From positions 558,001 through 622,000 of the forward strand of contig AP026134.1 of the NCBI GenBank assembly GCA_030295235.1: a stretch of 64,000 nucleotides of DNA, given 5' to 3'. The notes beneath the pieces are model-generated. The model worked only from the letters and a program-made list of their open reading frames with translations. It was not told the origin of the DNA and did no database searches. Positions 2,602-64,000 of the stretch are shown piece by piece. Every line of letters begins with the position of its first letter. Position 1 is the first letter of the stretch. Origin of the DNA: Fistulifera solaris. Its lineage: Eukaryota. Made by a program: the position numbers and the translations under genes.

Positions 2602-3617
2602 ATGACAAATCCGTTGTTAGGTATGAATAATTATTCCATTTTGCTGCGATATACCTCCTTGCCCAAGAGTAATCCAGCTCGGCAATATTTGTATCGTCGC
2701 TGACACCCTTCTTCTTTGTAGGCAAGCGAATTTCTCTCGTTTCCAAGAAAAATATTCGTTACGAAGGCGTCTTGTACTCCATCAATGAACAAAATGCTAC
2801 GGTAGCGTTGCAAAACGTCAAAACCTTCGGGACGGAGGGTCGTGAATTGGCCGAAGAAGGATGCATTTTTGTACCGCCTGCCGATACGGTACATCCGTAT
2901 CTTCTCTTTCGTGGTCAAGATATCAAAGATTTGCATGTACATGAACAACCAGCCGAGGAGCAACCGACACATACGACGGAGACTGCCCCCGCATCGCCGG
3001 TCACCGAAGCACCCAAGCCCCCGGATGCAGCGGCAACGCAACCAAATAAACCTGCGAAAACACCGCAATCAACGCAGCCGGCACCGACTAAGACGGCCAG
3101 TGAGAATGCTGGAAGAGGAGGAGAAGGCCGAGGAAATAACATTAATCGCCGTGCACGAAACAGCAAGGCTGCTCCCGGGACGGGCGCGAGTTTACTAAAT
3201 CGCACCGCTCGTGGTGTCGTAGGAGACACTGCCACCCCGCAGGAAGATTTCGATTTTCAATCCAGCTTGGAGAAATTCAAAGAACAGAGTGACGATAACG
3301 ATGAACCATATGCGGAAACGGCTTACGAGAAGGACGACTTTTTCGACTCGATTTCGTGTGATGCTCTCGACAAGCAATCTGGAATGGACAATCGATTGAA
3401 AGGAGCGGAAGAGCGTCGTTTGAATACAGAGACCTTTGGTGCGGTGGCTTTAAATACGCAGAGCCGAAGACGAGGCGGTATGAATGGACGCGGAGGCCGA
3501 GGACGTGGTGGTGGACGTGAAGGTCGAGGCAGCAATACCGGAAGAGGTCGCGGAGGACGTGGAGGCCGCGCTGGTGGAAGAGGTCGTGGACGTGGACGCG
3601 CGGTAGCGTCGGAATAA
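2602..3617 (+). CDS. LSM14: LSM14/Scd6/DCP5 mRNA decapping activator (P-body protein)
   Basis: Exon 2602-2620, GT-AG intron 2621-2721, exon 2722-3617 give MTNPLLGKRISLVSKKNIRYEGVL...VKTFGTEGR (LSm domain). FDF, FFD and TFG boxes and a C-terminal RGG tract follow. Confidence 0.93.
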
Positions 3618-4253
3618 TAAGAGAGGCAATAATGCTGCAAGCAAGTGGGAGCGCCTCTTGTGTTGAGGAAAATCCTTACCACAATCGCACGTAACACTAA
3701 ATATCATCTTGCTATTCCTCTTTCATTACAGAGTAATTGGTTCCCTGTCTTGCACCGCTATCTTTGAGGCAGATAACAATGCGAGACGACGAAGAATATC
3801 GTAATTTATTCAAACCTTTTGGAGAGTGCTCCCTCTAGAGTATTAGAGTTCAGCGGCACTGTGTGTTTCGGTCATTTTTCCTTCATCACGAGGCGGTTTC
3901 ATGAATGGAAGATGACTTATCATTTATCATATATCATATTCTGGTGTTTTAGTACGATCATTAGAAAGTTTTTCTCGTTATGGAAGAGTAGCTGGTTGAA
4001 CTAAACGCCGACCTGGAAATTCAGTCCTGGCGAGATTCCGTGTACAGGTTGAACCTATAGTGGTCAATCATTCTGAAATAGTCTCATCCGATGGCAAGAT
4101 TTGTTCCTCGTATTTTTTTTATTGCGGCTGCAATTTTTGACATTAAAGTTTGCCGTAAAGATCAAAATATTCGTGCAAACAACACACATACGTCCCGACA
4201 ATGCCAGCGAGTAGGAGAACGAAGAGGCATTTTTATTCACTGCTTTAACCATC

Positions 4254-6083
4254 ATGATTTTTGGATTCTCACGCCATGTAGCGAGTTGGAGCCAGACGCT
4301 GACCAAGTCGAGCTTCACGCAATCCATGAGACTTTCGTTCGTTCAGCGGCGGACGTTGGCTTCGTACCGTAAAAGTCAAATATTTATGATGCCCGAGGGT
4401 CCAGAGGTCCGAACTCTTGTGGATCAGTTGCAAGGAGGTGTGGGGAAACGACTTGTTAACATACAGGTGCTGTCCGGTCGATATCGTCAAAATGGCCCGC
4501 CCGATGGGTTTGTGGAGTTTGCGTCTACTATTACGCGATACGTTCCGGGTGACGACGAAGTGGACAACGTGGATATCATTCAAGAATGGAACTGCAAAGG
4601 GAAGTTCATCTATATCGTGTTGGATGATGGAAAACAAGAGCATCAGGATCCAAATTTTCAAAGGACAATTTTTGTTACTTTGGGAATGACGGGAAAGTTT
4701 GTAGCAGAAAAAGTGCACCGACAGGATAGTAGATTCGCTCGATGGTCCATGGAGCTTCTTGATGTGAATACGATGAAAACTATTAAGATATTTTACCATG
4801 ATCAAAGAAACTTTGGTACACTGAAGTTTTGTTTGAAGCGTGCCGATCTGCAGGAGAAACTAGATTCGCTGGGACCCGACATTCTGGATAACTATATCAC
4901 TGACCAAATGTTTCTGGATATTGTGGCTGCGCAAAAGCAAGATCTTAACATTTGCAAGTTTCTTATGAACCAAACAAAGATTTCTGGTGTTGGAAACTAT
5001 ATCCTTGCTGAAGCGCTGTACCGAGCACGGATCGATCCTTTCGCGTCATTGCACGAAATCAACGAAAGCCAGCTAAAGAGTCTTTTCCGTGAAATTCGCA
5101 CCACGGCACTACAGTCGTATCAGGCAAACGGCTTGACCAGGCAAAATGGTGGGCAATACAATAACATGGACGGCGAAGCGGGCCGATTCAGCTTTGAACT
5201 ACAATGCTATGGCAAGGAAACATGTGCGAAAGGGAAGCCAGTACTCAGAGAAACCAATGGACCTCATGATCGAACTATCTGGTACACGGAAGATCAATTG
5301 TTTATGCCTCGAGATTTGAGAATGACAGAATCCGCTCAATCTTTCCAGCGGGATGATTCTTCATCCGAACAAATGGAAGAGACTGACTCGGTTGGTCTCT
5401 CCGATGGGCTGACTGAGCCCAGTTGGCGAAATGTCCTTGCGGAAACATTTGAAACCGAGTCGTTTAGGGCTTTGGAAGCATTTTTAGAAGACGAAAGGCG
5501 ACAGGGCGCTACTGTCTATCCGCCACCGCAAGACATTTTTTCAGCTCTGAACAGTTGCCCGTTTGATCAAGTCAAGGTGGTCATCGTGGGGCAGGATCCG
5601 TACCATGGTCCCGGGCAGGGAAACGGCATGGCGTTTTCGGTTCGATCCGGAATACAACCTCCTCCGTCTTTGCAAAACATATTTCGCGAGGCTATGTCAG
5701 ACGTCGGCATTGCACAGCCTCTTCATGGCAACCTGCAATGCTGGGCAAGGCAAGGTATTTTACTTTTGAATTCGGTTCTAACGGTACGTCAAGGCGAGGC
5801 AAATAGCCATGCTAATAAAGGCTGGGAAGAGTTTACCGATTTAATCATCCGACGACTCAATGATGACCGCGAGAATCTCGTCTTTCTTCTTTGGGGGCGT
5901 CCTGCTGCGACGAAAGCGAAATGCGTCGACGAAGGGCGCCATCATGTCATAAGAACCAGCCACCCTAGTCCTCTGGGTGCTACTAAAACCACTTCGCCGT
6001 TTTTATCGTCGAAGTGTTTCAGCAGATGCAACGAGTATCTGACTTCTGTCGGAAACGCTCCTATCGACTGGAGTGTTGTGTAA
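4254..6083 (+). CDS. Fusion of an Fpg/Nei-family DNA glycosylase/AP lyase and a family-1 uracil-DNA glycosylase, with a possible N-terminal targeting peptide
   Basis: Single uninterrupted ORF. Fpg/Nei part: MPEGPEV (Met 4389, Pro 4392), KGKFIY, LGMTG, DQRNFG, H2TH motif ISGVGNYILAEALYRARIDP. UNG part from ~5415: GQDPYH (5589), PPSLQN, LLLNSVLTV, SHANKGWE, HPSPL (5961). Confidence 0.92.
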   Translation: MIFGFSRHVASWSQTLTKSSFTQSMRLSFVQRRTLASYRKSQIFMMPEGPEVRTLVDQLQGGVGKRLVNIQVLSGRYRQNGPPDGFVEFASTITRYVPGDDEVDNVDIIQEWNCKGKFIYIVLDDGKQEHQDPNFQRTIFVTLGMTGKFVAEKVHRQDSRFARWSMELLDVNTMKTIKIFYHDQRNFGTLKFCLKRADLQEKLDSLGPDILDNYITDQMFLDIVAAQKQDLNICKFLMNQTKISGVGNYILAEALYRARIDPFASLHEINESQLKSLFREIRTTALQSYQANGLTRQNGGQYNNMDGEAGRFSFELQCYGKETCAKGKPVLRETNGPHDRTIWYTEDQLFMPRDLRMTESAQSFQRDDSSSEQMEETDSVGLSDGLTEPSWRNVLAETFETESFRALEAFLEDERRQGATVYPPPQDIFSALNSCPFDQVKVVIVGQDPYHGPGQGNGMAFSVRSGIQPPPSLQNIFREAMSDVGIAQPLHGNLQCWARQGILLLNSVLTVRQGEANSHANKGWEEFTDLIIRRLNDDRENLVFLLWGRPAATKAKCVDEGRHHVIRTSHPSPLGATKTTSPFLSSKCFSRCNEYLTSVGNAPIDWSVV

Positions 6084-6271: not shown

Positions 6272-6678
6272 GAGACTCACCACGCGTCCTGTGATGATTG
6301 GTACCGGTACCAGTACCGTTACGATTTTTCTTGGTGGATGCAAGTTCTTGTATTCCGATGTCCGATGATGTAGTTTCACTTCAACAAACGAATGATGACG
6401 GCGCCCTCTCGACGAACTTCCAAACATCGTCATTCTCATTATCACTTCTTTCTTTCACAAAGAGAAAGATCACGTTAAATTTCAAGCAGTTGTTCTCGAA
6501 CGAAAACGAAAAATTCTGTTTTTCAGCGCGTCGACTCTTGACAGCCAATTGTGTTCGCAAAACTTGCAGAAATAAATCGAATAGAGATATCAGCCGAAAT
6601 GCGAATTGTTAATCGCATTTCATTTCATTGGACCGGATTATTGTTCTCAATATAATTTCGAAATTTCATACAACGACG

Positions 6679-8406
6679 ATGAATCATTTGATCTGCTCCC
6701 TGCTTGCTTTTAGCTCGCTCCCTCATGGGCTATTTGGCTTTAACGTGAATACCCCTTCGATAAGAACGCCGTCGTCTCTTGAGTCGTCTGTTTCGGTTTC
6801 TTCAAATCAAGCAAAGGCCCAGCCAAACGAGGCGATGCCTTGGCCACTCAACGTTGAAAAATACGGCGAGTTCGATCAACACAATGATTGGGGTTTCGTG
6901 TATTCGTCTGTACCTCCGGAAGCTTCTTCGTCGTATGAAATTGACGATATTGAAGGTCAGATTCCAGCAGACTTGTCTGGAGCATACTACAAGGCAGGGC
7001 CTGGAAATTTCGAGCGAGAAGGACGCAGATACGCGCACGTTCTCGATGGCGACGGCTTTGTAGCGGCTTTTCACTTTGGAAATGGAAAGGCTAGATACAC
7101 TGGTCGCTTTGTGGAGACAGAGTATTTTGTCCGTGAGTCACTGGAAGACAAAATCAAGTATCGTAATGTATTTGGAACTCAACGCTCTGGAAGCATACTC
7201 AAGAATGCATTCGACTTGGTTCTAAAGAATGTCGCAAACACGAATGTGGTGAAATGGGGTGGAAGATTATTCGCGTTATGGGAAGCAGGTCGTCCCTATG
7301 AGCTAGACCCTGATACTCTGGAAACATTGAAGCAAGCAGATGATGGGCCCTATGAGGGACTTGGAACTGATGCTAGGATCAGAGGTATCACAGTTGATCA
7401 TGGCGGTCAAATTGATAAGCTGATGGGAGTAGGACGCGCATTTACAGCACATCCCCATATCCTCGATGATGACACGATGGTCGCATTCAAAGCAGCCACC
7501 AGCGTGACAGACAAGAAATCCTGCTTGGAGTTCTTGGAGTACAATAATAAGTGGGAGGTGAAAAAGGCAGTCGAATACTCGTTTGATGTTGGACCACCAC
7601 CACATGATTTCAGCATTTCAGAAAACTATTACTGCTTCTTCGAAAACCCTTTTGGTGCCATGGACAACGTCCCGTACTTGTTCGGCGTCAAAGCCCCAAC
7701 TCAAATAATGCAGCTTCTGCTCCGTCGGCCAGCTATTTTACACTTGGTACCGCGCCATTCATTTGCAAAAGCCATGACGGTGGAAGTCGCGCCCTACTTT
7801 AATATTCACAATGTTCCGGAAGCAATTGAAAGAAACGGGAAGCTTTACTTGTACTCTAATGGATGGGATTTGAATGATCGACGATTCTTCCCAGATTCAA
7901 AGGATTCTGTTCCTTTCCTCGGCTCGTGGGGTGGTCTCTACCCAGATTTCATAAATGGCGTCGTTCCTCCGAGTTTCCTTTATGAAACAGTGGTGGATTT
8001 GCAGTCCAAGACGACGGTTCGTCATAAAGAAGTTGCACCGGGAGTAGTCATGGAGTTCCCTGTTTCGGATCCAAACAACGCTGAAATTGTGTATTGTACA
8101 GTTGCCGCCACAGATTACACCTCTTTGCCTGGAACCGGATTATGTAAAATGAACGTAAAGACGTCGGAAGTGGAGTGCTGGTGGGCCGAAAACAAAATCT
8201 TCACACATGAGATCACTCCAGTATCAAAGCTGAATGGCGAGGCGGGTTCCTGGCTCCTTACCCTTTTCTACGATTCTGGTAAAAAACGAGCATCTTTAGC
8301 CATTTTTGACAGCGAGAAATTCCAGGAAGGTCCAGTCTGCCGAATGCATTTAAAGCATCATTTGAGTTATGGCCTTCACGGTTCCTTCTCGTCGTGCTTG
8401 AACTAA
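6679..8406 (+). CDS. Carotenoid oxygenase (RPE65/CCD/ACO family), predicted plastid-targeted
   Basis: Motifs G-x-IP-x-DL-x-G, GPG, HVLDGDG, NVANTNVV, LFALWEAGRPYELDPDTLETL. Four Fe-ligand His candidates (AHPH, PHDF, IHN, GLHGSF). Signal peptide ending LFG-F followed by a Ser-rich transit-like region. Confidence 0.9.
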   Translation: MNHLICSLLAFSSLPHGLFGFNVNTPSIRTPSSLESSVSVSSNQAKAQPNEAMPWPLNVEKYGEFDQHNDWGFVYSSVPPEASSSYEIDDIEGQIPADLSGAYYKAGPGNFEREGRRYAHVLDGDGFVAAFHFGNGKARYTGRFVETEYFVRESLEDKIKYRNVFGTQRSGSILKNAFDLVLKNVANTNVVKWGGRLFALWEAGRPYELDPDTLETLKQADDGPYEGLGTDARIRGITVDHGGQIDKLMGVGRAFTAHPHILDDDTMVAFKAATSVTDKKSCLEFLEYNNKWEVKKAVEYSFDVGPPPHDFSISENYYCFFENPFGAMDNVPYLFGVKAPTQIMQLLLRRPAILHLVPRHSFAKAMTVEVAPYFNIHNVPEAIERNGKLYLYSNGWDLNDRRFFPDSKDSVPFLGSWGGLYPDFINGVVPPSFLYETVVDLQSKTTVRHKEVAPGVVMEFPVSDPNNAEIVYCTVAATDYTSLPGTGLCKMNVKTSEVECWWAENKIFTHEITPVSKLNGEAGSWLLTLFYDSGKKRASLAIFDSEKFQEGPVCRMHLKHHLSYGLHGSFSSCLN

Positions 8407-31151: not shown

Positions 31152-34034
31152 ATGTCAGCTTTCCGGGGACGAGGCGCAGTACCGCCGAAGAATTACGTTC
31201 CTGGACTGGGTCGCGGTGCCGCTGGCTTTACGACGCGCAGTGATGTGGGCCCAGTCGTCCCCGAAGACGCCGTCACCGGAAGTGGTAGTCGAGCGGCGGA
31301 AGCGCGGAAGCAATTACAATTTGGAGCCCCGCCCGCCAATTATGTAGCGGGGGCGGGGAGAGGGGCCGGGACTCTAAATGCTCAGGGAGACGAAGGACCC
31401 GTCGGAGCTTACGATAGCTTTTCCGGATATTCGGCGGCACCCCAAAAAGGTCAATACGATGATGACGATGACGAAGCTGATAAAATATGGGCAACTATTG
31501 ATGAGCGAATGAATCGAAAACGAAAGAAAAAAGGCGACAATACACAAGATGATGCTGATGACGACGCTGGTGGACGAAAACGAGTCAGAGCAAGGATCGG
31601 CGCGCAATTTCACGAACTCAAGGAGAAATTAGCCGAAGTCACAGAAGATCAATGGGCTAGTATTCCGGATGTTGGGGATCATAGTTTGAAGTATAAGCAG
31701 CAGAGGCGACAGCAAGATACGTTCACGCCTTTATCAGATTCACTCATCGAGCAGAGGAATAAGTCGCAACTGGACGCGTCGGCAGGCAATGCTGCTCTTG
31801 CGGGTACTACGATAGCAGATGACGGATCTGGGTTCAAATCAGTCGTAGCTGATATGTCTGGCCTCAGTGCTGCTCGTGGTACGGTTCTTGGTATAAGTCT
31901 GGATCGAATGTCGGGTTCAGTTGCCGGCAATCAGACATCAATCGATCCAAAAGGTTATCTGACGAGCCTTTCTGGTATTCAGTCAGTGTCAAATGCTGAG
32001 GTGGCGGATATCAATAAAGCCCGCTTACTTCTTAAGTCCGTTCGCGACACGAATCCAAAACACGGTCCAGGGTGGATTGCGGCTGCTCGAGTGGAAGAGG
32101 CGGCTGGAAAGTTACTGCAGGCGCGAAAAATCATCCAGGAGGCTTGTGAGATCTGTGCCGACAACGAGGATGTGTGGTTGGAAGCAGCAAGGTTGCACCC
32201 TCATGATGTTGCAAAAAGTATCTTAGCTACAGCCGTTCGCCGTGTCCCAAAATCTGTGAAAATCTTTCTCAAGGCAGCAGATCTTGAACATGTCGAAGCG
32301 AACAAGAAAGCAGTGTTGCGAAAAGGTTTGGAAGCTAATCCCTCGTCGATTACGCTATGGAAAGCAGCTATTGCTTTAGAAAATGCTGAGGATGCACGAC
32401 TTCTGCTACAAGTTGCAGTAGAAAAGGTTCCTCATTCGGTAGAAATGTGGCTGGCTCTAGCACGTTTGGAGTCTTACAAAAATGCTCAGAGAGTTCTCAA
32501 TAGTGCAAGAAAAGCTTTACCGAATGATCGGTCGATATGGATTGCAGCTGCGAGACTGGAAGAATCACAAAATCACGATGAAGTCATTGACAAGATTATT
32601 CAGAGAGCTGTCAAGTCTCTTGAAAAGAATGAAGCTGTCGTAACTCGCGCGCAGTGGCTTCAAGAAGCTGAAGCGGCAGAAAGTTCCGGTGCACCATTGA
32701 CGAGTGCTGCTATAATAAAGTATACAATTGGTAAAGATGTTGATGACGAAGATCGACAACGGACGTGGACGGAAGATGCAAAAGGAGCTGCCGCCCGTGG
32801 TTCCATAGCAACTGCCAGAGCTATCCTGTCACACGCGCTGTCTGCGTTTCCAACGAAAAGGACCCTTTGGACACAGGCGATTGATCTTGAACGCAACCAT
32901 GGAACGGCGAAAACGTTGGATGAAGTGCTTGAAGCTGCTAGTGAGCGGCTTCCTCAAGTTGAGATTTTCTGGTTGCTACGGGCAAAAGAGCAGTGGGTCA
33001 ATGGGGATGTGAATAAAGCTCGCGATATTCTTGCAAAGGCTTTTGCTGTGAACCCTGAATCTGAAGCCGTTTGGTTGGCGGCATCCAAGCTCGAGCATGA
33101 GAACGGCGAAGTCGAACGCGCTCGTTTCTTCCTTGAAAGAGCCAGACAAAGAGCACCAACGGCTCGAGTTTATATGAAAGCTGCTCTTCTAGAGAGAGAA
33201 CAAACGAATTTCGATGACGCACTCCAACTAATTGAAGAAGGCTTATCAAAGTTTGTTAAATTTAGCAAACTATACATGATGGGTGGTCAAATATGCTCAG
33301 AAAATTTACCACGCAATAAGACCAGTTTATCACGTGCAAGAAAGTTTTATGAAAGAGGGTTGAAGGAATGCCCTGAAAGCCACATCTTGTGGATTCTAGC
33401 GAGTCGCTTGGAGGAAGAGGCTGTGCACTTTGAGGACGTAGCGACGAACAGTCAAGGGTCTGGTGCAACGAAGGCTAGAAGTATCCTTGAGTTGGCGCGG
33501 TTGAAGAATCCAAAGAACCCAGATCTTTGGCTGGAATCCATAAGACTTGAACGCCGGGTGGGGACAACGAAACTCGCTGAGACGCAGATGGCAAAAGCCT
33601 TACAGGAGTGTCCAAAGTCTGGAATTCTCCTAGCCGAGTCAATATTGAGCAGTCCGCGTGTCGAGCAGAAGTCAAAGGCAGCAGAAGCGATTAAGCGTTG
33701 TCCAGATGATCCTTTGGTTATCGCGGCAGTTGCTTCTCTGTTTGCGTCAGAAAACAAAAATGACAAGGCGCGTAAGTGGTTTGATAGAGCCACGGTTTTG
33801 AATCCAGATATTGGTGACATCTGGGCTCGATTCTATTTATTCGAATTGAAATCCGGTACGCAAGATCAACAGGAAAAGGTCAAAGCGGCTTGCATTGCAG
33901 CAGAACCAAAACATGGAGATATTTGGGCGTCGATTATGAAAGATATGAAAAATAGGGGTAAATCTGTTGCCGAAGGGTTGGAGCTGGTTGCTGAACACAT
34001 TCTACTGGAACAGAAGAAAGCGCTTGTGTCATGA
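31152..34034 (+). CDS. PRPF6: Pre-mRNA splicing factor PRP6 (U5-102K)
   Basis: PPKNYVPGLGRGAAGFTTRSDVGP, IDPKGYLTSL, KARLLLKSVRDTNPKHGPGWIAAAR, then HAT repeats and AEPKHGDIW. Confidence 0.97.
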   Translation: MSAFRGRGAVPPKNYVPGLGRGAAGFTTRSDVGPVVPEDAVTGSGSRAAEARKQLQFGAPPANYVAGAGRGAGTLNAQGDEGPVGAYDSFSGYSAAPQKGQYDDDDDEADKIWATIDERMNRKRKKKGDNTQDDADDDAGGRKRVRARIGAQFHELKEKLAEVTEDQWASIPDVGDHSLKYKQQRRQQDTFTPLSDSLIEQRNKSQLDASAGNAALAGTTIADDGSGFKSVVADMSGLSAARGTVLGISLDRMSGSVAGNQTSIDPKGYLTSLSGIQSVSNAEVADINKARLLLKSVRDTNPKHGPGWIAAARVEEAAGKLLQARKIIQEACEICADNEDVWLEAARLHPHDVAKSILATAVRRVPKSVKIFLKAADLEHVEANKKAVLRKGLEANPSSITLWKAAIALENAEDARLLLQVAVEKVPHSVEMWLALARLESYKNAQRVLNSARKALPNDRSIWIAAARLEESQNHDEVIDKIIQRAVKSLEKNEAVVTRAQWLQEAEAAESSGAPLTSAAIIKYTIGKDVDDEDRQRTWTEDAKGAAARGSIATARAILSHALSAFPTKRTLWTQAIDLERNHGTAKTLDEVLEAASERLPQVEIFWLLRAKEQWVNGDVNKARDILAKAFAVNPESEAVWLAASKLEHENGEVERARFFLERARQRAPTARVYMKAALLEREQTNFDDALQLIEEGLSKFVKFSKLYMMGGQICSENLPRNKTSLSRARKFYERGLKECPESHILWILASRLEEEAVHFEDVATNSQGSGATKARSILELARLKNPKNPDLWLESIRLERRVGTTKLAETQMAKALQECPKSGILLAESILSSPRVEQKSKAAEAIKRCPDDPLVIAAVASLFASENKNDKARKWFDRATVLNPDIGDIWARFYLFELKSGTQDQQEKVKAACIAAEPKHGDIWASIMKDMKNRGKSVAEGLELVAEHILLEQKKALVS

Positions 34035-34236
34035 ACCCCGTTTCGGTCATAGTTGGTTGTTTAAAACGCAAGAACAAAACTCATATAGGAATTCTAAGTT
34101 ATTGCCCAGGTTCATAAATGAATTGTATGTGACTGGAATTCTGTAAAATTCAATTAGGGACAATCTTTAATTACGAAGTATTTAAAATAAAATTATCAGC
34201 CCCTCTAGCTTTCGAGCAACTTTCCGATCTATTTAC

Positions 34237-34467
34237 TTCATGACTGAAATGCAGTCGTGAAGAAAGGTCGCCTACACGTTGATCTATAGTATTTCGATAA
34301 GACGACATTTCACAACGGCTTTCAACATGAAAAAAACAAGACATGCATTCCAAATGCTGTATGATATTAATAACAAATACTATTGTTGTTGCTGAACGAA
34401 AGGAGGTTTAAGTAGCATTGTGGTACGCCGAAACCATGATTCATGACTGAAATGCAGTCGTGGCGAA
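34237..34467 (+). repeat. Dispersed ~230-bp element bounded by two identical 23-bp hairpins
   Basis: TTCATGACTGAAATGCAGTCGTG at 34237 and at 34440. Confidence 0.8.
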
Positions 34468-35023
34468 GTGAAAATACTCGAACCTTACTCGTGGCTGACG
34501 GGTCACGAGCGCGCGAAATGTGCGCGACCAACGGGAAGGTGGAGGGAATGCGGCGGGCCCGCCCGATCGGAACGTCAACACGCAGCCTCGTCTTGCGGTG
34601 AAATACGAAGTTCATGTCCAAGGTAAAAAAGAGAGAGAAGTGTACGAAATCTTTGGCCAAAGCCATGCATCTCGCAATTGCACACAATATCAGAAGCACT
34701 CGCCAGCCATACGCTACAATACGATTTAAGTGCTTTTGAAAAGGTGCGTATCCATCTGAATTGTTCTCGTGACAGGATCATTGCATTCGATTGCTTCTGT
34801 TGTTTGCTGTACATGCTATTGCTAGAAAGCCCCGCTAACGTAGCGGCGCTACGGCTCGAGTACTGCCAGCAATCGTGTGAGAGCTACCGCTGTGTGTGTG
34901 TTCATAATTACCGATCGTTTGTAAGGCCTGGTCTCAGTCTCACATTTTGTGATTTATTATCCGATTCGATAGTTTCTTTTTCCCCCAAGTCGGATAAGTG
35001 CAAAAACAAAGACCTTGATTATA

Positions 35024-38000
35024 ATGGATCAAGACGAAGACCGTGCGGAAGATTCAGCCTTCGACACGGATGAGGATGAGGTCGAAGACGAGAACGAAGG
35101 CGATGGCGTTTCGGACGCGGGAGATGGGTCTGCTGAGGAGGAGGAGGAGGAGGAGGAAGTCGCGGAACCTATGGTGCACGATGAAGATGAGGACGAAGAG
35201 GACGAACATGAAGATGACCTTGGCGGCGAACAAGAAGAAGAGGATATCGACGAAGGAGAAGAGGTCGGACATGAAGAACTAGAGGGCAACGATGAAGAAG
35301 AGGAAGAGGCTGCAGTGGAAAGTGTGGTCAAAGAAAATGGCGACGATGAAGATGATGACGAAGGAGAAGAAGTACTCGCTGCTGTCATCATTGAAGATGA
35401 ACCCATTGCTGCTACAGAGGAAGCAGAAGGTATTGATGTGCAGCCAACGGTGGAGGTTGAAAAAGTGTACAAAGCCAAACCTGTTGCCAAAAAAAAGCAG
35501 GCCATCGTCCGTTGGGAGAAAGAAGAAGAAAGCCGGTAAGATAACTTTATCGGCTGATGGGTTAAGAATGGATGTTCGACCTGAAAACTTAGAAGCTGCT
35601 AAAGATGCGCGAGCCACTTTGCGGGATATGGTCCAAAGTCTCCCTATTCCTTTCGGTGACATTCAAGTACGCTCATTTGGACGGATTCATGTCGAGTCCG
35701 ATAAATCTGCAAAAGAGGCCAAGTTTTCATCCGCAGGCTCTATTTACCCTGTCGGATTCTCTTGTGATCGTTTCGAGTTCAGTCCAGTTCACGGGCGAGT
35801 GCTCAAAATGCGATGCACTATTTTGGATGGAAGAAGAATCAAGCAGTTACAGAGAGAGAAGGGTTTTCCGGTAACGGATCGATTGGCTGACGGGCCAGTC
35901 TTTCGTGTTGTGTGGGGCCAGGGAATAGACGAGGAAAATGATGACGACTTGGGACCGTTTGATCCAGAAATTGATGCACCGTTGATCGATACCTCTAAAA
36001 GAATAACGACAAATACAAGTATGAGACCCAAAGTTGGTATGCAAGTGCAGGTTCGCTTCGGCAAGAATCACACTCACGGCGGGGTAATTACCAGAGTTGG
36101 AGCTGTGCACCCGAGCACGAAAGAATCCAATCGCAAGGGGCTGACCTCAAACCAAGATATTACAATCAAATACGACGATGGCTTTTCTGAGACAATTTCT
36201 TATCCAGACGCCGATGTTGCGTTAGTAGTCCCCGGTACGTTAAAAGGTATCTTGTGGTCGGGCATGTCAAGCGTTTTTAACCTTTTGTTCCAGGACTGGA
36301 ATATGAAATCGACTCTCAAGGTAATGCCGAACTTTTGGAGTGGGGTGGCAAACAAGTTACCTCAGTTGTTGCGAATTCGCCATTGGAAGCTTGGGGGAAC
36401 GTACTTGTCAAACTTGGTCTCGTTGATGAATTGATGCTCTCAAGTGCTCTTGAAGCGGTCGATACTGCTCGAAAAGAAGTCCTGCAAGAAGCTAAAGACA
36501 AATTAGAGGGCAAAGCTAAGACGCCGACAAAAAGTCGCAGCGAGAAGTCAGAGGAGTCACCATGCAGTGTTGGTGAAGCTCCGATGGAAAACAAGGAAAC
36601 GCAAAGTGTAGTGGACAGATCAACGGATGAATTATCTCAGAGTGTTATATCAATGGACGATAGGCAACCAGCGACTGACCAAGAAAACAAGTTACGCGAG
36701 CGGCTTAGTGATCTCCTAGCTCAGCTAGAGCAAGTCGAAGTAGAAGATGGGAAAGCGACGGTAGCCCTTGCGGATTCGCGAATTCATCTTCTCGGTCGCT
36801 TCATGTGCAATCCGTTCCAAGATGATCTTAATGGAAAGGCTCAACAAATAACGTGGCTAGCGACCGCGGTAAGGAAGGAAAAAGCCCGAATGGGAAGTAC
36901 GGGTAATCGAAAGAAAGTCGTCACAGCTGTTGATCTATTGGAAAGAAATGATTCTATCTACAACATTGACATTGAAACGCTTATTGAAGGTCTTCCCGGC
37001 AGTGAATTTTGTAAATCCTACATTTTCCAAGCATTTCGAAGTGGTGGATCGGCCATAAATCGGGCCTGGATGCTCGAGGCTCAGCTTCGACAAGAAAAGG
37101 ATGAGATTAGGCGGATGAAGAAGTCGCGAGAACTGGAAGAAAAAGAGTTGGAGAGAGTATCACAAGAAAGCGAACGAAAGAAGAAACGCCTTCAAAATGA
37201 AGAAGTTCGCGATTCCAGAAAACGACAAAAGCTGGAGGAAGAGGAAGGAAAGAAGAAACAGAGAGTCGAAGAGCGGCTATCTCGTTTACGAGTACAAGTC
37301 GAAGAGCGTCTGCTAAAGGAGGCTGCGGCTCAAAGAGAGAAAGTGTTGACATCTTTCGCCAAGAGTCTTGGTAAGGAATTCATTAGGAGACGAAAAGCGG
37401 CTGAAATCGTTGCACTACAAAACGCAGTGGGTACGAAGCGTTCATTTGAAGCGCAGATGTCGCCATCACACCATCCTTTACCTCCGTCTTCGGAATCATT
37501 CGAAGAAGATGCAGTCCGCGTTTGGAACTTTTTTTCGACTTTCAAAGATTTTTTTTCTGCAACGCGGGTATTTGAACGAAATTCCAAGTCTAGAATCGCT
37601 CCAGAAAGCTATCGACTGTTTGCGGGATCACAATCATTCAAGTATTGATTTGAGAGATGAGGCCATTAACTTGTTAACTGACTTAGCGATAGCCTTGTGC
37701 CAGCCTTTAGCGGCAAGCTTAACCAGGATTCTTTTGCCAGTCTCATTGCCCTGAATCCAACACTCCAGAAGGATTTCGGAGCTGCTTTCTTTAACGAAGT
37801 CAATTCGGTCGAAGACAATGCTGAAGTCCAACAGAGTGATGTCCTGATACCAGTTAACAAGCATACCTGGAGGGATGTAGCACGACAGTCCTTACTTGCA
37901 GATGCGCTTGCTGAGCTCGGGATGCAAAGGTACGGTTTTTCTGATTTTCCTCTTCTGTTCTTTGTCTGCGGGCGCGACCCTGACAAATTTTTTTGTGGTA

Positions 38001-45605: not shown

Positions 45606-46088
45606 TTCGATTTCCCCAAGGCAATCCCGTCGTGTAAGGACAGTTTCAATGTCATTTTAATAATATTGTGTGAATTGGAAGATGTGGAGTTGTTGGATGA
45701 TATATGTCACAATGCAATTACAAGTAATATGTAATATGAAGGTAATTGACGACGAAAAAAAAGCGTGCAAGGAAACATCCAACGTGCGACATGATGTCAT
45801 GTGCTTCATGACTCAAAAGTCAGTCGGGACTCTGTACAAAGGGGTAACCCATAAAAAAACACTTTGGGCCTACTTGGTATACATTTGGCAGTAAGCAACA
45901 CTACTACTTGTAAACAGATAGAGTTATTCATTCGCGGTCATCCGCGACCCAACACCAAGATCCAATTGTCTGGTGAAAAAGACTTTTGCCATTATTACAA
46001 AGTACAAAGTACATTCTCCTTGGAAGAGTATCACATTCTTTCTATCTTTCTTTCAACATTTTCATCTAATGCACTCGTCACTTCCATA

Positions 46089-47540
46089 ATGGCTCCGAAA
46101 AACAAGAATTTCGAAGAACTCAAGGAGCGATTGAATGCGCTGAAAACAGAACAGCGAGAGCTACAAGCGCTCTACCAAGAACGAGCCCACCAGCGCGTCG
46201 AGTACCAAAACAAAATGGCCAACCTCAACGTCATGTTGCAAAAACGCAGCATGGATACGATGTTGATTGAAGATGTCGTCGTTGTGACGCTCGTGGCCGA
46301 AAACGATGCGCGCGAACGTTACGCTCTCCTGCCTCCGGCACCCACGAAAACGGCCATTGCGGTGGAACCGGGGCAGAAAACGAAAAGTCTCGAGGAGGCC
46401 TGTAACATTTACCGAAGCCAAATTGAAGTATTGGAGGAAATGATTGAATACCGAAGAATATTGACAGCGACCGAACGAGATTTGGATCTTTTGTATCGAC
46501 AAGCCGTTGATGACATACTGGATATAATGGACGAGTATTGTGACGACGAGAAATTGAAAGCCGACATGATCTCGTTCGCCGCAGCTGGGACTGCTCCGTG
46601 TTCTCCACGCAAAGAGACAAAGAAGCGGACGATTAGTAGAATACTTTCGTCACCGGGAACTTTCTTCTCGCCCAAGAAAGAAGCGGTAAAAGACACCATG
46701 CAGAACGACTTGTTGCCCGCCCCTCTCTCGGTCGAGCCACCGAAAACGCCGAAACAAGCATTTTCCCAATTCAAAGAGAACACCGCGTTGAATGATTTAA
46801 AAGCGGCACCCCTTATCGATGTGACCGAAAACGACGGTAGCATGAATGATGGAGACGTGTTCATGAACACGGATCATGACAAAACCAGTGGATCCCCAGA
46901 TCGGCGGAAAAGAAAAAGAGTGGTAAAAAGATTGTTGAAGTAGGAGAAAAGCATGTTGACGAGGGTGTTGATGAAAAGAAGAAAAAGAAGAAGAAGAAGA
47001 AAAAGAGCGACGCTGTCGCGGGAGAATCAACCACACCGGAAATTCACGAGTCGTCGGAAGCAGACCAAGAAGCAGAAACTGATGTTATAGAAAAAACAAA
47101 AGAAAAAGAAGAAAGAACAACAAGTTGCCGAGAATGATGCTCCACTGGAAGATCCAGTTGAAAGCACTAAAGGAACAAAGAAAAAGAAGAAAGAGAAGGG
47201 CGGCAACGATCAATCGAAAAGTCATGGTGAAAAGCTCGAGGGCGACCGAGACATCGAAGCTTTGCCGGAAGATGTCAGCGAAGCAGTCGAAGCAATTCCT
47301 GTCGAGAAGACAAAGAAAAAGACAAAGAGCAAAAGCGAAGTCACGGAAAACAACAATCCCCCCTTCATTGATTGACGAGGAACCTGTAGCTGACCGTCAG
47401 GAGAGCCCCAAGAAGAAGAAAAAGAAAAAAGCCAAAAGGCGAAGAAGAAACGGAATGCAAAATCACGAATGAGAAAATCAAGAAGAAAAATAATAATGGA
47501 AAAGAGGCGTCCACTGTTGGGAGAAAAGCTGATCTGTAAT
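46089..47540 (+). CDS. Hypothetical coiled-coil protein with a Lys/Glu-rich low-complexity tail; 3' end uncertain
   Basis: ORF from ATG 46089 to 46943 with heptads. K/E-rich coding-like sequence continues to ~47540 across A-run frameshifts. Confidence 0.55.
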
Positions 47541-48228
47541 TGAGCGAAGCGTGTTTCCATATCATTGACTCGGTTCAACGCAAGCGTAGTTTCCGAGTTT
47601 CCTATGAAATGGATTTAATGGAACCGTTGATGAGCTGAAAAATTGAAGGCATTTCTATCTTCTATAATCATCACAATGGGGAGGTGGCAACCTGATTTCT
47701 CGGCTGCAAAAACGGATACAAGCATCAAAAGAATGATCAAGATGAATTGTTTTTCAATTGACGAAAGGGCGTTTCTGTCATTAGTAACTTCTCAAATTCG
47801 TGAAGGTAAAGCACTTACTTCACGTTTTTCATCTTAATAATTACTTTCTGACTAGGAAATTGGGAATAAATATTAGGATTTTTTATTGTGAATACTTATA
47901 AAGGGAAGGCAGATAACGTAGTTCTCTAGCTCTCCCATTCTAATTCTTTAAGAGTTACCAGTTTTTTTTACGGAGTATAAACATTTCCAGGACTGAAATT
48001 AATGAGTCGGAAAAATAGCAGAAAGTCTGCTTTTTGTACAGTTGGAGTCAGAGTTGACTTTATCGCCTAAAATCTTTACTGGCGAGTATTAGAGCGCCGG
48101 CCGACCTCCATTTGTATTTGACGGCTAATTTTTTGCAAAACTCGACACGTTCCCCCCTCGCACCTCGGCGAAACAAATCCGACAACTGCCATAACCGAGA
48201 TCATATCTTGTTGTGCACAATATTTGAG

Positions 48229-61853: not shown

Positions 61854-62777
61854 ATGCACCTTATCGAAGAAGCTTTCGGCAAAGGCTGTTCACTTTACCA
61901 TGACGTTCTCAAATGCCCGAAAGATGCTTCCGCAGCGCAATTGCGGAAAGCGTATTACCGGGCCGCATTGCTCTATCACCCCGACAAGAATCCCGATGGT
62001 CATAAGCAGTTTCAAGCCATTTCCATGGCGTATCAAATTTTGAAAGATAAGGACATGAGAGATGCGTACGATGAATCGGGAGAAATTCCGGATACACCCG
62101 ACGACGATGATGACATGGGAACATCCCATAAACGCAATCCGTGGAAAGAATACTTCGATCGCATCTTTGGTAAGGTGACTACGTCCGATATTGACGCCTT
62201 TTCGGCTAAATACAAATGTAGTGATGAAGAGAAAAAGGATGTCTTGCAGCAATTCGTACAGCGAAAAGGAGATTTGATGCAAATGCTCGAATTTGTCATG
62301 TTGAGTACCGAAAAGGATGCCGTGCGGTGGGTGGAAGATTATCTCCGACCGGCCCTGGAAGCTAACGAAATTCCGAACGAATATCAGTCGACTATGAACA
62401 AGACACTGGAAAAAATCCAAAAGAAACTCAGTAAGCAGAAGGATTTCGAGGAACAAGCCGAAGAAGACAACGACAACGACGACGACGACGACGACGCCAC
62501 CGAGTCGGAAGAGGATTTGCCTCCCGTCCTGCGCAAACCCAAACGCACCGTCAAAAGGGGAAACCAACGCAAGCGAAAAGAAAAAGAACGACGATATGAC
62601 CGATTTGATTGCACAAATTCAAAACAAGCGGGGTGGTGCGAATAGCCTCCTCCAAAGTATAGCGTCACGCTACGGTGTCGACAATCACGATCCGCTGAAC
62701 GACGACGAATTTTCCAAACTTCAGGCTCGTGTCGAGTCGAAGCGAAAAAAGAAGTAATTATCGGAACTGCAGCATAG
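61854..62777 (+). CDS. DNAJC9: DnaJ subfamily C member 9-like; 3' end frameshifted
   Basis: J-domain with HPD, then WKEYFDRIFGKVT..DIDAF...YK.SDEEK.DV....KGD, an acidic/basic tail and DLIAQIQNK in a shifted frame. Confidence 0.82.
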
Positions 62778-62852
62778 CAATCGTATGAAGAATGCATTTA
62801 CTACAATTTAGAAAAGAATTTTTAGTAATTCATTGTTGAATAGCTTCAATCA

Positions 62853-64000
62853 CTAGACTCCCAGAACACGTGGGAAATACGAATGCAGTACGGCGGTTAT
62901 GGCTCCCAGGATCGAGCACGCAAAGCCGAATCCAACAAGGAACTTGCAAAAGTAGCGTTCCAATTTATCCTTCGTCTTTCTTGTCACATCCTTGGATGTA
63001 TGCTTCAAATAAAGCAAGGCCGGATACGTGTAAATAATGGCCGTCCCCGTCAAAGCCCCATTGAAACTAATGACAAATCCCGCATCTTTGACAAACAGCG
63101 CCATGCCCGTCAATATGGATAACAAAAGTGCCGTCACTTTCTTCGTTTCCCCTTCCCGACCCTTGCCCCACAATTGCAGAGCGGCGGAACGACACGCATC
63201 AAAGACAAAGGGAAAACCACCCACAACGGAAGTGACAATGAGTGACTTGGAGACTTTGGCGCCCCAGTCATGGGCGGGATAATTGTTCAGAATAATCCCT
63301 TGTGCATTCGCACCAAACGTCAAGAATCCAAACGCCATGGCCGCCATGCTGATGAGTGTGACCACAGTATACGAGAATCCCGTCATGAGATGGAACTGGT
63401 TCAAGACTGACTCGTCCTTGATCGCGGCTTGGTTACTTTTGCGTCCCGTCAAGGCATGATAGAATTCCGGTGCCGAGAAATGTGCCATGAGAGCGACACA
63501 ACTCATGGCAATCAAGAGAAGCGGTGCCGGTGAAGCCACTCGGTTGTAGGTATGAAACGAACCGGCGGTCGCATACGGACTGGTGGGTTGGAAAACGGGA
63601 CACCGCCAGGCCAAAAAGGCGGTCGTAAAGGCCGTTCCGGTGACTCCGACGAACGACAAGGGCGCCAAGGAAGCGAGCGATTGTAAATTACAAAGTGGCC
63701 AAAGAATACCTCCAGCCACGGCCAAAATGGAGGCCGAACGATTGGACCACCTCGTCCCGATCAAACTGGTAACAGAATCTCCAATGACCAAGATATACGC
63801 CAAGGCACAACCAAAGCAATAAATAAAGTTGGAAAACGGAATTAGAGTCGACTTTTTGTCCGCATAGACTGCTTGCCACAAATCCCCCCAAATTGTGGGC
63901 TTTCGGAAAATAAGCATGCGTCAATCGTCCGTACAACGCAAACGTGTAGGCCGAGAGAGCGGCAATGAGCGAAAAGAAGGTACATCCAGCCCACAAACTG
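62853..64000 (-). CDS. Amino-acid transporter (AAAP/SLC38-like), 5'-truncated by the window edge
   Basis: About 10 TM helices. WPLCNLQSLASLAPLSFVG, FGFLTFG...GIILNNY, NGALTG....YTYP. Confidence 0.88.

Follow-up and report, generated by a model that had tools for sequence, protein, structure and literature searches.

UNG, the uracil-DNA glycosylase, is monofunctional and leaves an apurinic/apyrimidinic (AP) site, and the enzymes of the Fpg/Nei superfamily are glycosylases and beta,delta-lyases whose nucleophile is the secondary amine of a proline at the N-terminus. Base excision repair (BER) independent of AP endonuclease is known from mammals, where NEIL1 or NEIL2 acts with PNKP, and from Arabidopsis, where FPG acts with ZDP. 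One study reports that uracil repair in APEX1-null human cells needed NTHL1 with AP-site hydrolysis blocked (PMC10778768), and a review describes how glycosylases are inhibited by their product, the AP site (PMC12190888). In the NEIL/PNKP, FPG/ZDP and NTHL1 back-up systems, a bifunctional lyase takes the AP site from a monofunctional glycosylase, but the partners are separate proteins. Here we describe a diatom protein, known from sequence alone, in which two such partners are covalently joined and for which we propose the same transfer. It is encoded at positions 4254..6083, on the forward strand, of a 64,000-nucleotide stretch of the Fistulifera solaris genome (GenBank assembly GCA_030295235.1, contig AP026134.1, positions 558,001 to 622,000; hereafter the window), and comprises an Fpg/Nei-type half followed by a family-1 UNG half.

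Of the proteins with a solved structure, MvNei1 of Mimivirus (PDB 3A42, 3A45, 3A46, 3VK7, 3VK8 and 4NRW) is the one closest to the Nei half, and like the diatom domain it starts with MPEGPE and has a finger that lacks the four cysteines; human NEIL1 is presumably a further relative of this MvNei1-like, zincless half. We think it rather probable that the fusion protein is an organelle-directed two-enzyme initiator of BER, combining a Mimivirus-Nei1/NEIL1-like lyase with UNG, and we infer its targeting, its processing, both of its activities and the hand-off between them. The gene is genuine, lacks introns and belongs to the nuclear genome of a raphid pennate diatom. An earlier reading of this DNA from its letters (the sequence-only reading) had proposed a single open reading frame (ORF) of 609 amino acids, which was borne out at exactly the coordinates above. 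The parts of the gene are as follows.

4254..6083, forward strand: ORF including its stop codon, 609 amino acids in a single uninterrupted frame, with extension, Nei domain, linker and UNG domain
4254..4388, forward strand: N-terminal extension, amino acids 1-45, disordered, rich in Ser, Thr and Arg and free of acidic residues, read as a presequence/transit tract
4386..4394, forward strand: ATG ATG CCC, the codons of the invariant Met45-Met46 and the catalytic Pro47
4389..5303, forward strand: Fpg/Nei glycosylase/AP-lyase domain, amino acids 46-350 (Pfam, structure model, Foldseek and conserved catalytic residues), the first part of which, before the H2TH part, is the N-terminal beta-sandwich
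4869-5114, forward strand: H2TH part of the Nei domain (Pfam)
about 5193-5291, forward strand: zincless beta-hairpin finger of the Nei domain, with R340 (model)
5304..5408, forward strand: flexible linker rich in acidic residues and Ser, amino acids 351-385
5409..6080, forward strand: family-1 UNG domain, amino acids 386-609, with Asp448 at 5595-5597 and His570 at 5961-5963

Both halves were recognized by profile models. Pfam placed Fapy_DNA_glyco (PF01149) at residues 46-189 (42.6 bits, cut-off 25.5), H2TH (PF06831) at residues 206-287 (48.4 bits, cut-off 34.7) and UDG at residues 437-596 (62.4 bits, above the gathering score). Five NCBIfam equivalog models of UNG scored above their cut-offs within residues 386-608, the best being NF003589 (293.8 bits against a cut-off of 223, residues 387-608). 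The bacterial fpg and nei equivalogs all fell below their cut-offs (TIGR00577, 116.3 against 203.3; PRK01103, 116.3 against 212; PRK10445, 54.2 against 252); by these scores the Nei half belongs to the Fpg/Nei superfamily without being an equivalog of bacterial Fpg or Nei. All motifs quoted in the sequence-only reading were present, namely MPEGPEV (46-52), KGK (115-117) and RTIWY (340-344) in the Nei half, and GQDPY (446-450) and HPSPL (570-574) in the UNG half, together with the Asn of LLLN (N506), so that two complete and conserved catalytic domains lie on one chain. The catalytic set of the Nei half consists of M46-P47-E48, E51, K117 and R340, and the UNG half has the Asp that activates water, the Asn that specifies uracil, the catalytic His and the intercalation-loop Leu. 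The earlier claim of a complete Fpg/Nei domain thus stood, except that the domain starts at M46-P47, behind a 45-residue extension that had gone unnoticed, and not at the N-terminus of the ORF. The acidic, Ser-containing linker, previously put at about 30 residues, measures 35, of which nine are Asp or Glu and seven are Ser.

The UNG half is a canonical family-1 uracil-DNA glycosylase by profile models, motifs and fold, and its uracil excision activity is predicted accordingly from these. Its model superposed on human, Bacillus subtilis and Escherichia coli UNG with template modelling (TM) scores of 0.93-0.95 and root-mean-square deviations of 1.0-1.6 A; it is 46-49% identical to the solved UNGs, and its sequence matches in PDB reached E-values down to 1.7e-69. 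The closest named stand-alone UNGs were oomycete proteins (55-61% identity). Unlike the stand-alone UNGs of Chaetoceros and Triparma, this half has no N-terminal region of its own, and a whole Nei enzyme stands in that place; the region in the stand-alone proteins is, we assume, either PCNA/RPA-binding or mitochondrial.

The Nei domain, when modelled alone, reached a mean predicted local distance difference test score (pLDDT) of 93 and a predicted TM score (pTM) of 0.89. Foldseek ranked MvNei1 entries (3a42, 3vk7, 3a45 and 4nrw) at positions 1-5 with E-values of 5e-22 to 1e-19, TM scores of 0.78-0.82 on the target and 26-27% identity to the Nei half; MutM was also among the fold matches, and Arabidopsis FPG first appeared at rank 33. 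In the sequence comparison with PDB, MvNei1 (3a45 and 3a42) matched over residues 46-295 at an E-value of about 5e-23, and Thermus MutM at 1e-13. The sequence-only reading had set this half closer to NEIL1 or MvNei1 than to bacterial Fpg: for MvNei1 this is supported by both sequence and the first five fold ranks, but NEIL1 was absent among the top 50 Foldseek rows. The same reading had noted the lack of a canonical four-Cys finger, and rightly. We looked for one in 124 fused homologs and failed to find it, the sole conserved cysteine being C318 (111/124), and C325 of the ORF aligned with Pro or Ala in other homologs. Because only one cysteine is conserved, we read the finger as zincless; in the model a beta-hairpin with strands at residues 331-333 and 342-344 carries R340.

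Giant viruses had been named as one place where the two-domain architecture might be found. In IMG/VR, 217 giant-virus-type contigs, many of them labelled as giant-virus metagenome-assembled genomes (MAGs), encode relatives of the Nei half. The best 80 of the 217 are 31-36% identical to it over the whole domain and are stand-alone genes for proteins of 233-291 residues (median 268), and none of these 80 loci has a UNG gene within 3 kb. An origin of the fusion from giant viruses is ruled out for those 80 loci. The diatom Nei domain differs from these stand-alone viral proteins in its larger size, its N-terminal extension and its fusion to UNG. Identity to the diatom Nei amounts to 43-45% for proteins of Triparma, a member of the Parmales, the sister group of diatoms, 36-40% for viral-type proteins and 20-26% for amoebozoan ones.

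The fusion is neither rare nor singular, and to judge from public sequences it is the standard form across diatoms. We scored 8000 candidates among public proteins of 334-1066 residues, of which 505 matched the ORF at E<=1e-5. All of the best 120 of these 505 carried both H2TH and UDG, 112 of them with Fapy_DNA_glyco as well. Every organism named among the listed matches was a diatom, the carriers being Fistulifera solaris, Cylindrotheca, Nitzschia, Stephanodiscus, Thalassiosira, Conticribra, Mayamaea and a Bacillariaceae MAG; the nearest named relative was a protein of F. solaris (90% identity). The architecture of Fapy_DNA_glyco, H2TH and UDG that the sequence-only reading proposed to search for is thus found across diatoms, and in Triparma its Nei and UNG parts are separate. 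The transcriptome ORFs among the fused relatives include three marked 'type:complete' (P0026, P0064 and P0094), which is evidence that in relatives the two halves lie on a single mRNA.

Residue conservation was counted in the alignment of the 124 fused homologs. In the Nei half P47 and E48 are kept in 117/117, K117 in 119/120 and R340 in 123/124, and in the UNG half D448, N506 and H570 are each kept in all 124. The linker varied from 32 to 157 residues (median 50) in the 119 diatom-type homologs, where its mean majority fraction was 0.276 against 0.657 for the Nei half and 0.729 for the UNG half. As the catalytic residues are nearly invariant and the linker is poorly conserved, both enzymes appear to be under selection and to be joined by a flexible tether. 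The AlphaFold model of the full-length protein (mean pLDDT 87.8, pTM 0.61) had pLDDT below 50 at residues 1-41 and at residues 368-375 of the linker. With this pTM and the low confidence of the linker, the relative placement of the two domains is therefore undefined.

Most matches carry only the label 'uracil-DNA glycosylase', and it is under this automatic label alone that the architecture is visible in public databases. Searches of the full-text literature, in which subscription journals were thinly covered, turned up neither the Nei-UNG fusion nor a diatom UNG enzyme, and term searches within PMC8307549, PMC6728418 and PMC3493329 gave no mention of them. The earlier remark that no characterised protein with this architecture came to mind agrees with these searches, but the architecture is not rare, given the 505 matches. 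What is new is an uncharacterised, lineage-wide arrangement of two textbook enzymes with an unexplained maturation junction.

That junction lies at the end of the N-terminal extension. Among 117 homologs with the MPEGPE start, all 102 that have upstream residues carry a Met directly before the M of this motif; in the best 80 viral Nei loci, Met was not among the eight commonest codons before the start. We examined the extensions of at least 35 residues from 74 homologs, in which the junction can be written R-R-[S/T]-x-[I/P/L]-[V/T]-M-M-P, with Met at -2 in 74/74, Ser or Thr at -6 in 69/74 and Arg at -7 in 45/74. In the last 30 residues of these extensions, Ser and Thr made up 25.5%, Arg and Lys 19.1% and Asp and Glu 0.8%, compared with 12.9%, 12.7% and 13.7% in the mature domain. 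By crude tests of our own making, 52/74 had a hydrophobic h-region near the start and 39/74 had, after it, a small-x-small motif followed by F, W, Y or L (mean 4.1 and maximum 11 in 200 shuffles). Diatom plastid presequences have features known from the ASAFAP-motif literature, among them an aromatic residue or Leu at +1. In the relatives, the layout of the extension looks like that of a diatom bipartite plastid presequence, with a signal peptide and a hydroxylated, basic, acid-poor transit tract. The extension probably points to organelle targeting. The mitochondrial processing motifs R-2, R-3 and R-10 were compared with the junction by eye, and none of them sets a cut in front of Met46 or Pro47.

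Both the extension and the double Met are older than the fusion: the stand-alone Nei P0546 of Triparma already has them, with YMMPEGPEV at the end of an extension that resembles a signal peptide. The stand-alone UNGs of Chaetoceros and Triparma start with SYF or SFGF and a basic tract, presumably the nuclear, PCNA-binding UNG2 type, and some diatoms appear to have such a nuclear UNG besides the fused one that bears a presequence.

For the start of the F. solaris gene itself, two further features upstream of the ORF have to be considered.

4201..4203, forward strand: candidate true start ATG, out of frame as assembled and in frame if the run at 4230-4234 has six T
4230..4234, forward strand: homopolymer of five T, its length differing between the window and the read assembly, which decides the frame of the signal-peptide start

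As assembled, the ORF begins with MIFGFSRHVAS, too short a stretch to serve as a signal peptide. Its frame is open upstream of the ATG at 4254 and reads AFLFTALTI there, and this stretch aligns with the hydrophobic core in the signal peptide of P0004, a close relative; a BLASTP comparison of this upstream frame with P0004 gave 33/59 identical residues (E 1e-15), beginning 10 residues before the annotated Met. Positions 4201-4230 of the window translate, in a frame other than that of the main ORF, to MPASRRTKRH, a basic n-region similar to those with which P0003 and P0004 open. A contig assembled from the read set X1 has an extra T behind 4229 (depth 18.4 of 18.4), which joins the 4201 frame to the main frame and adds 18 residues, giving an n-region, a 13-residue h-region and a cleavage site between VAS and W. 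We read the extra T as a homopolymer error of the assembly or an allelic difference, and the annotated ATG at 4254 is, by these comparisons, probably not the true start. An upstream exon beginning with the ATG at 4091, which has a hydrophobic start, was also considered and was dropped for the simpler one-base homopolymer explanation, which the relatives support.

In the T-run at 4113 (4113-4120) the X1 contig is shorter by one T, and with two differences in the length of T-runs (4113 and 4229) the assembly may hold further homopolymer errors. X1, the only read set to contain the whole gene, covers all 30 bins of the window, genes and spacers evenly, and thus behaves like a DNA library. The coverage of two further read sets, X2 and X3, is confined to the neighbouring gene (2700-3650), at a depth of up to about 75, as a transcriptome would show.

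The origin of the fusion was approached through Triparma and a tree of UNG domains. In Triparma, stand-alone Nei proteins (P0291, P0545 and P0546; 309-346 residues) match the Nei half over 97% of its length, and UNG is likewise encoded on its own (P0537, 323 residues), so that Nei and UNG are separate genes there, as annotated, whereas diatoms have one fused gene; for this reason the fusion looks diatom-specific. A stand-alone UNG of 320 residues is also found in a Chaetoceros transcriptome. A careful maximum-likelihood tree was inferred from 43 UNG domains picked by hand out of 84 rows, keeping 11/22 of the diatom-fused UNGs, 5/5 of the other Nei-UNG fusions, 4/7 of the oomycete proteins, and 5/14 'short' and 8/21 'mid' unnamed UNGs. 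In this tree, the 11 diatom-fused UNGs and the Chaetoceros stand-alone UNG formed a clade (support 96/89) with the Triparma UNG as its sister (85/84), and the oomycetes and a labyrinthulid lay near them. By this placement, the UNG half is a vertically inherited stramenopile UNG. A branch with support of 99/99 separated the other Nei-UNG fusions from the diatom UNG, and a quick tree of all 84 rows gave the same main split, with a value of 96 in the Shimodaira-Hasegawa-like approximate likelihood ratio test. When all 16 fused rows were constrained to one clade, the tree became worse by 49.6 log-likelihood units (approximately unbiased (AU) test, P = 0.029). The simplest reading of these comparisons is that the resident UNG was duplicated in the diatom lineage and one copy was fused to Nei. 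In the diatom stem, after the split from the Parmales, a copy of the stramenopile UNG would have been attached to a Nei gene at its 3' end, and this Nei gene would already have had the presequence and the Met-Met-Pro junction.

The remaining fusions, on the evidence of these sequences, have a separate and independent origin in Amoebozoa. They comprise a protein of Pelomyxa schiedti (KAH3743406.1), a transcript of Rhizamoeba saxonica and three unnamed proteins, and resemble the diatom protein in the order of Nei followed by UNG; the Pelomyxa protein starts with MPELPEV. They differ from it in the low identity of their Nei halves given above and in linkers of 102-340 residues. By eye, a conserved acidic, helix-like segment is seen in the middle of the linker of P0188, P0187, P0177, P0194 and P0246, and the domain scan gave no Pfam match for it.

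In the reading we favour, the protein would be imported into an organelle, most likely the plastid by means of the bipartite signal and possibly the mitochondrion. The extension would then be removed, or a short isoform would be made from Met46, and either way Pro47 would be free as the N-terminal nucleophile. UNG would excise uracil, and the tethered Nei domain would excise oxidised pyrimidines and formamidopyrimidine (Fapy) lesions and cut AP sites, including those made by UNG, through beta,delta-elimination. Repair begun in this manner would need a 3'-phosphatase instead of an AP endonuclease. The hand-off of AP sites from UNG to Nei is plausible by analogy with the systems in which the partners are separate. 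We also offer, tentatively and as a more doubtful proposal, a wider version: that diatoms and, independently, some Amoebozoa have a single-chain initiator of base excision, that uracil repair in the plastid or mitochondrion is independent of AP endonuclease, and that the junction is a maturation site which unmasks the proline after import. The junction would then work through a presequence cut followed by removal of Met, or through a protected internal start, and the enzyme would be switched on by its arrival in the organelle.

Several points weigh against the reading of an organelle-directed, two-activity enzyme or against parts of it. Pro47 is internal in the ORF, whereas Fpg/Nei chemistry needs a free N-terminal Pro, and the invariant Met-Met that precedes Pro47 lacks an explanation. 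An adequate h-region is missing from the ORF as assembled and arises only with the extra T of a single read contig; in the crude tests, 22/74 extensions failed the h-region criterion and 35/74 were missing the cleavage-type motif. No RNA run from the source organism was found to cover the fused gene. The full-length model gives no sign that the two active sites are linked by a channel or a fixed interface. As for the origin, the rejection of a single fusion event by the AU test is only modest, and the 43-row tree does not settle where the stand-alone UNG of Chaetoceros stands with respect to the fused clade.

The alternative that survives best, and a strong rival, is that the fusion serves co-targeting only: UNG gains the Nei presequence, which takes it across the four plastid membranes, and equal dosage, and the two enzymes work independently with no hand-off. 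This we consider unlikely, albeit less so than the other alternatives below. Besides the pTM of 0.61 of the model without a fixed interface, it accords with a presequence and a Met-Met-Pro junction that are older than the fusion (Triparma P0546), with the other N-terminus of the stand-alone diatom and Parmales UNGs, presumably of the nuclear type, and with a linker that varies in sequence as well as in length. Against it speaks the company that UNG keeps elsewhere, since UNG has repeatedly been joined to proteins that cleave AP sites, namely to Nei twice independently and to an Nth-like, an OGG1 and an EEP domain. Some of these fusions are bacterial-type, so that organelle import is not expected for them and targeting alone is hard put to explain them.

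These fusions come from a Pfam survey of 42 proteins, all long or multi-stretch, that were chosen among the best 150 representatives. The partner of UDG was H2TH in 16, Nth-like HhH-GPD in three and a photolyase in two, and a further 16 had no partner above the Pfam cut-off; OGG1, EEP, zf-PARP and RNase_T, each with UDG, and UDG with Macro were single cases. The fusions to Nth-like (in both orders), OGG1, EEP, zf-PARP, RNase_T and Macro domains are P0141, P0249, P0214, P0162, P0168, P0185, P0236 and P0172. Most of them are unnamed metagenome gene calls that could be merged models; the exceptions by cluster size are P0168 (6 members) and the photolyase-UNG of Deinococcus (35 members).

Some of these proteins deserve mention for their own sake. 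The cluster of P0168, in which an ExoIII/APE-like EEP domain is joined to UNG, has five of its six members at 516-533 residues. The Deinococcus fusion of a photolyase (DNA_photolyase and FAD_binding_7) with UNG (P0244 and P0273-P0286, mostly 761 residues) is kept in many genomes and is labelled only 'uracil-DNA glycosylase'. P0083 (1011 residues, from a 3888-base contig) consists of a diatom-type Nei-UNG with a C-terminal Exo_endo_phos (EEP) domain, and is a triple repair fusion unless the gene call is a read-through.

The position of Pro47 gives rise to a second alternative, which we regard as improbable, that the Nei half is non-catalytic in the main form of the protein: with its proline blocked, the domain would be a module that binds DNA or AP sites and thereby recruits or retains UNG. 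Pro47 is indeed internal in every gene model with an extension (102/117), the sequence assigns no processing site, and Met aminopeptidase is established to leave a Met that stands before another Met. Nevertheless, P47, E48, E51, K117 and R340 are kept in 117/117 to 123/124 homologs over about 50% divergence, which is unexpected for a pure binding module, and the conservation of the junction, with its Met at -2 and its Ser or Thr at -6, suggests a defined site of cleavage or internal start. That two neighbouring genes were merged by an error of the assembly or of the gene model is hardly credible, for although the homopolymer differences just upstream show that the assembly is not error-free, the frame is uninterrupted, the X1 read contigs agree with the window throughout 4254-5900, hundreds of independent assemblies and transcriptome ORFs have the same architecture, and the linker is without a stop codon in all 124 aligned homologs.

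The fused gene is flanked by two others on the same strand. The upstream neighbour (2772-3617, forward strand) encodes an LSM14/Scd6-like Sm domain, an FDF domain and an RGG-rich tail; as its Sm match starts at profile position 22, its true start is probably upstream. The downstream neighbour (6628-8406, forward strand) encodes a carotenoid cleavage oxygenase of the RPE65 type (PF03055, 277.5 bits). Elsewhere in the window, positions 32001-38000 have a GC skew of 0.12-0.165 and an AT skew of about 0.11, and the AT skew is 0.25 at 46001-48000 and 0.24 at 62001-64000; the extremes at 32-38, 46-48 and 62-64 kb may be long strand-biased genes or repeats.

AP sites are toxic, and how glycosylases pass them on is a central question in BER. 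A fusion that is kept in diatoms, has arisen again in Amoebozoa and is echoed by fusions with Nth-like, OGG1 and ExoIII-like enzymes amounts to Rosetta-stone evidence for a coupling of UNG to AP-site cleavage, and comparison of the fused enzyme with its separated halves makes it a natural test system for the hand-off. The maturation of the precursor is a biochemical puzzle as well, given that the enzyme requires its proline to be free at the N-terminus. Cytosine base editing in diatoms is a further reason for interest, as endogenous UNG activity limits its efficiency. If the fusion protein is organellar, it would be the main repair enzyme for uracil and oxidised bases in the plastids or mitochondria of diatoms, a subject on which our literature search found nothing.

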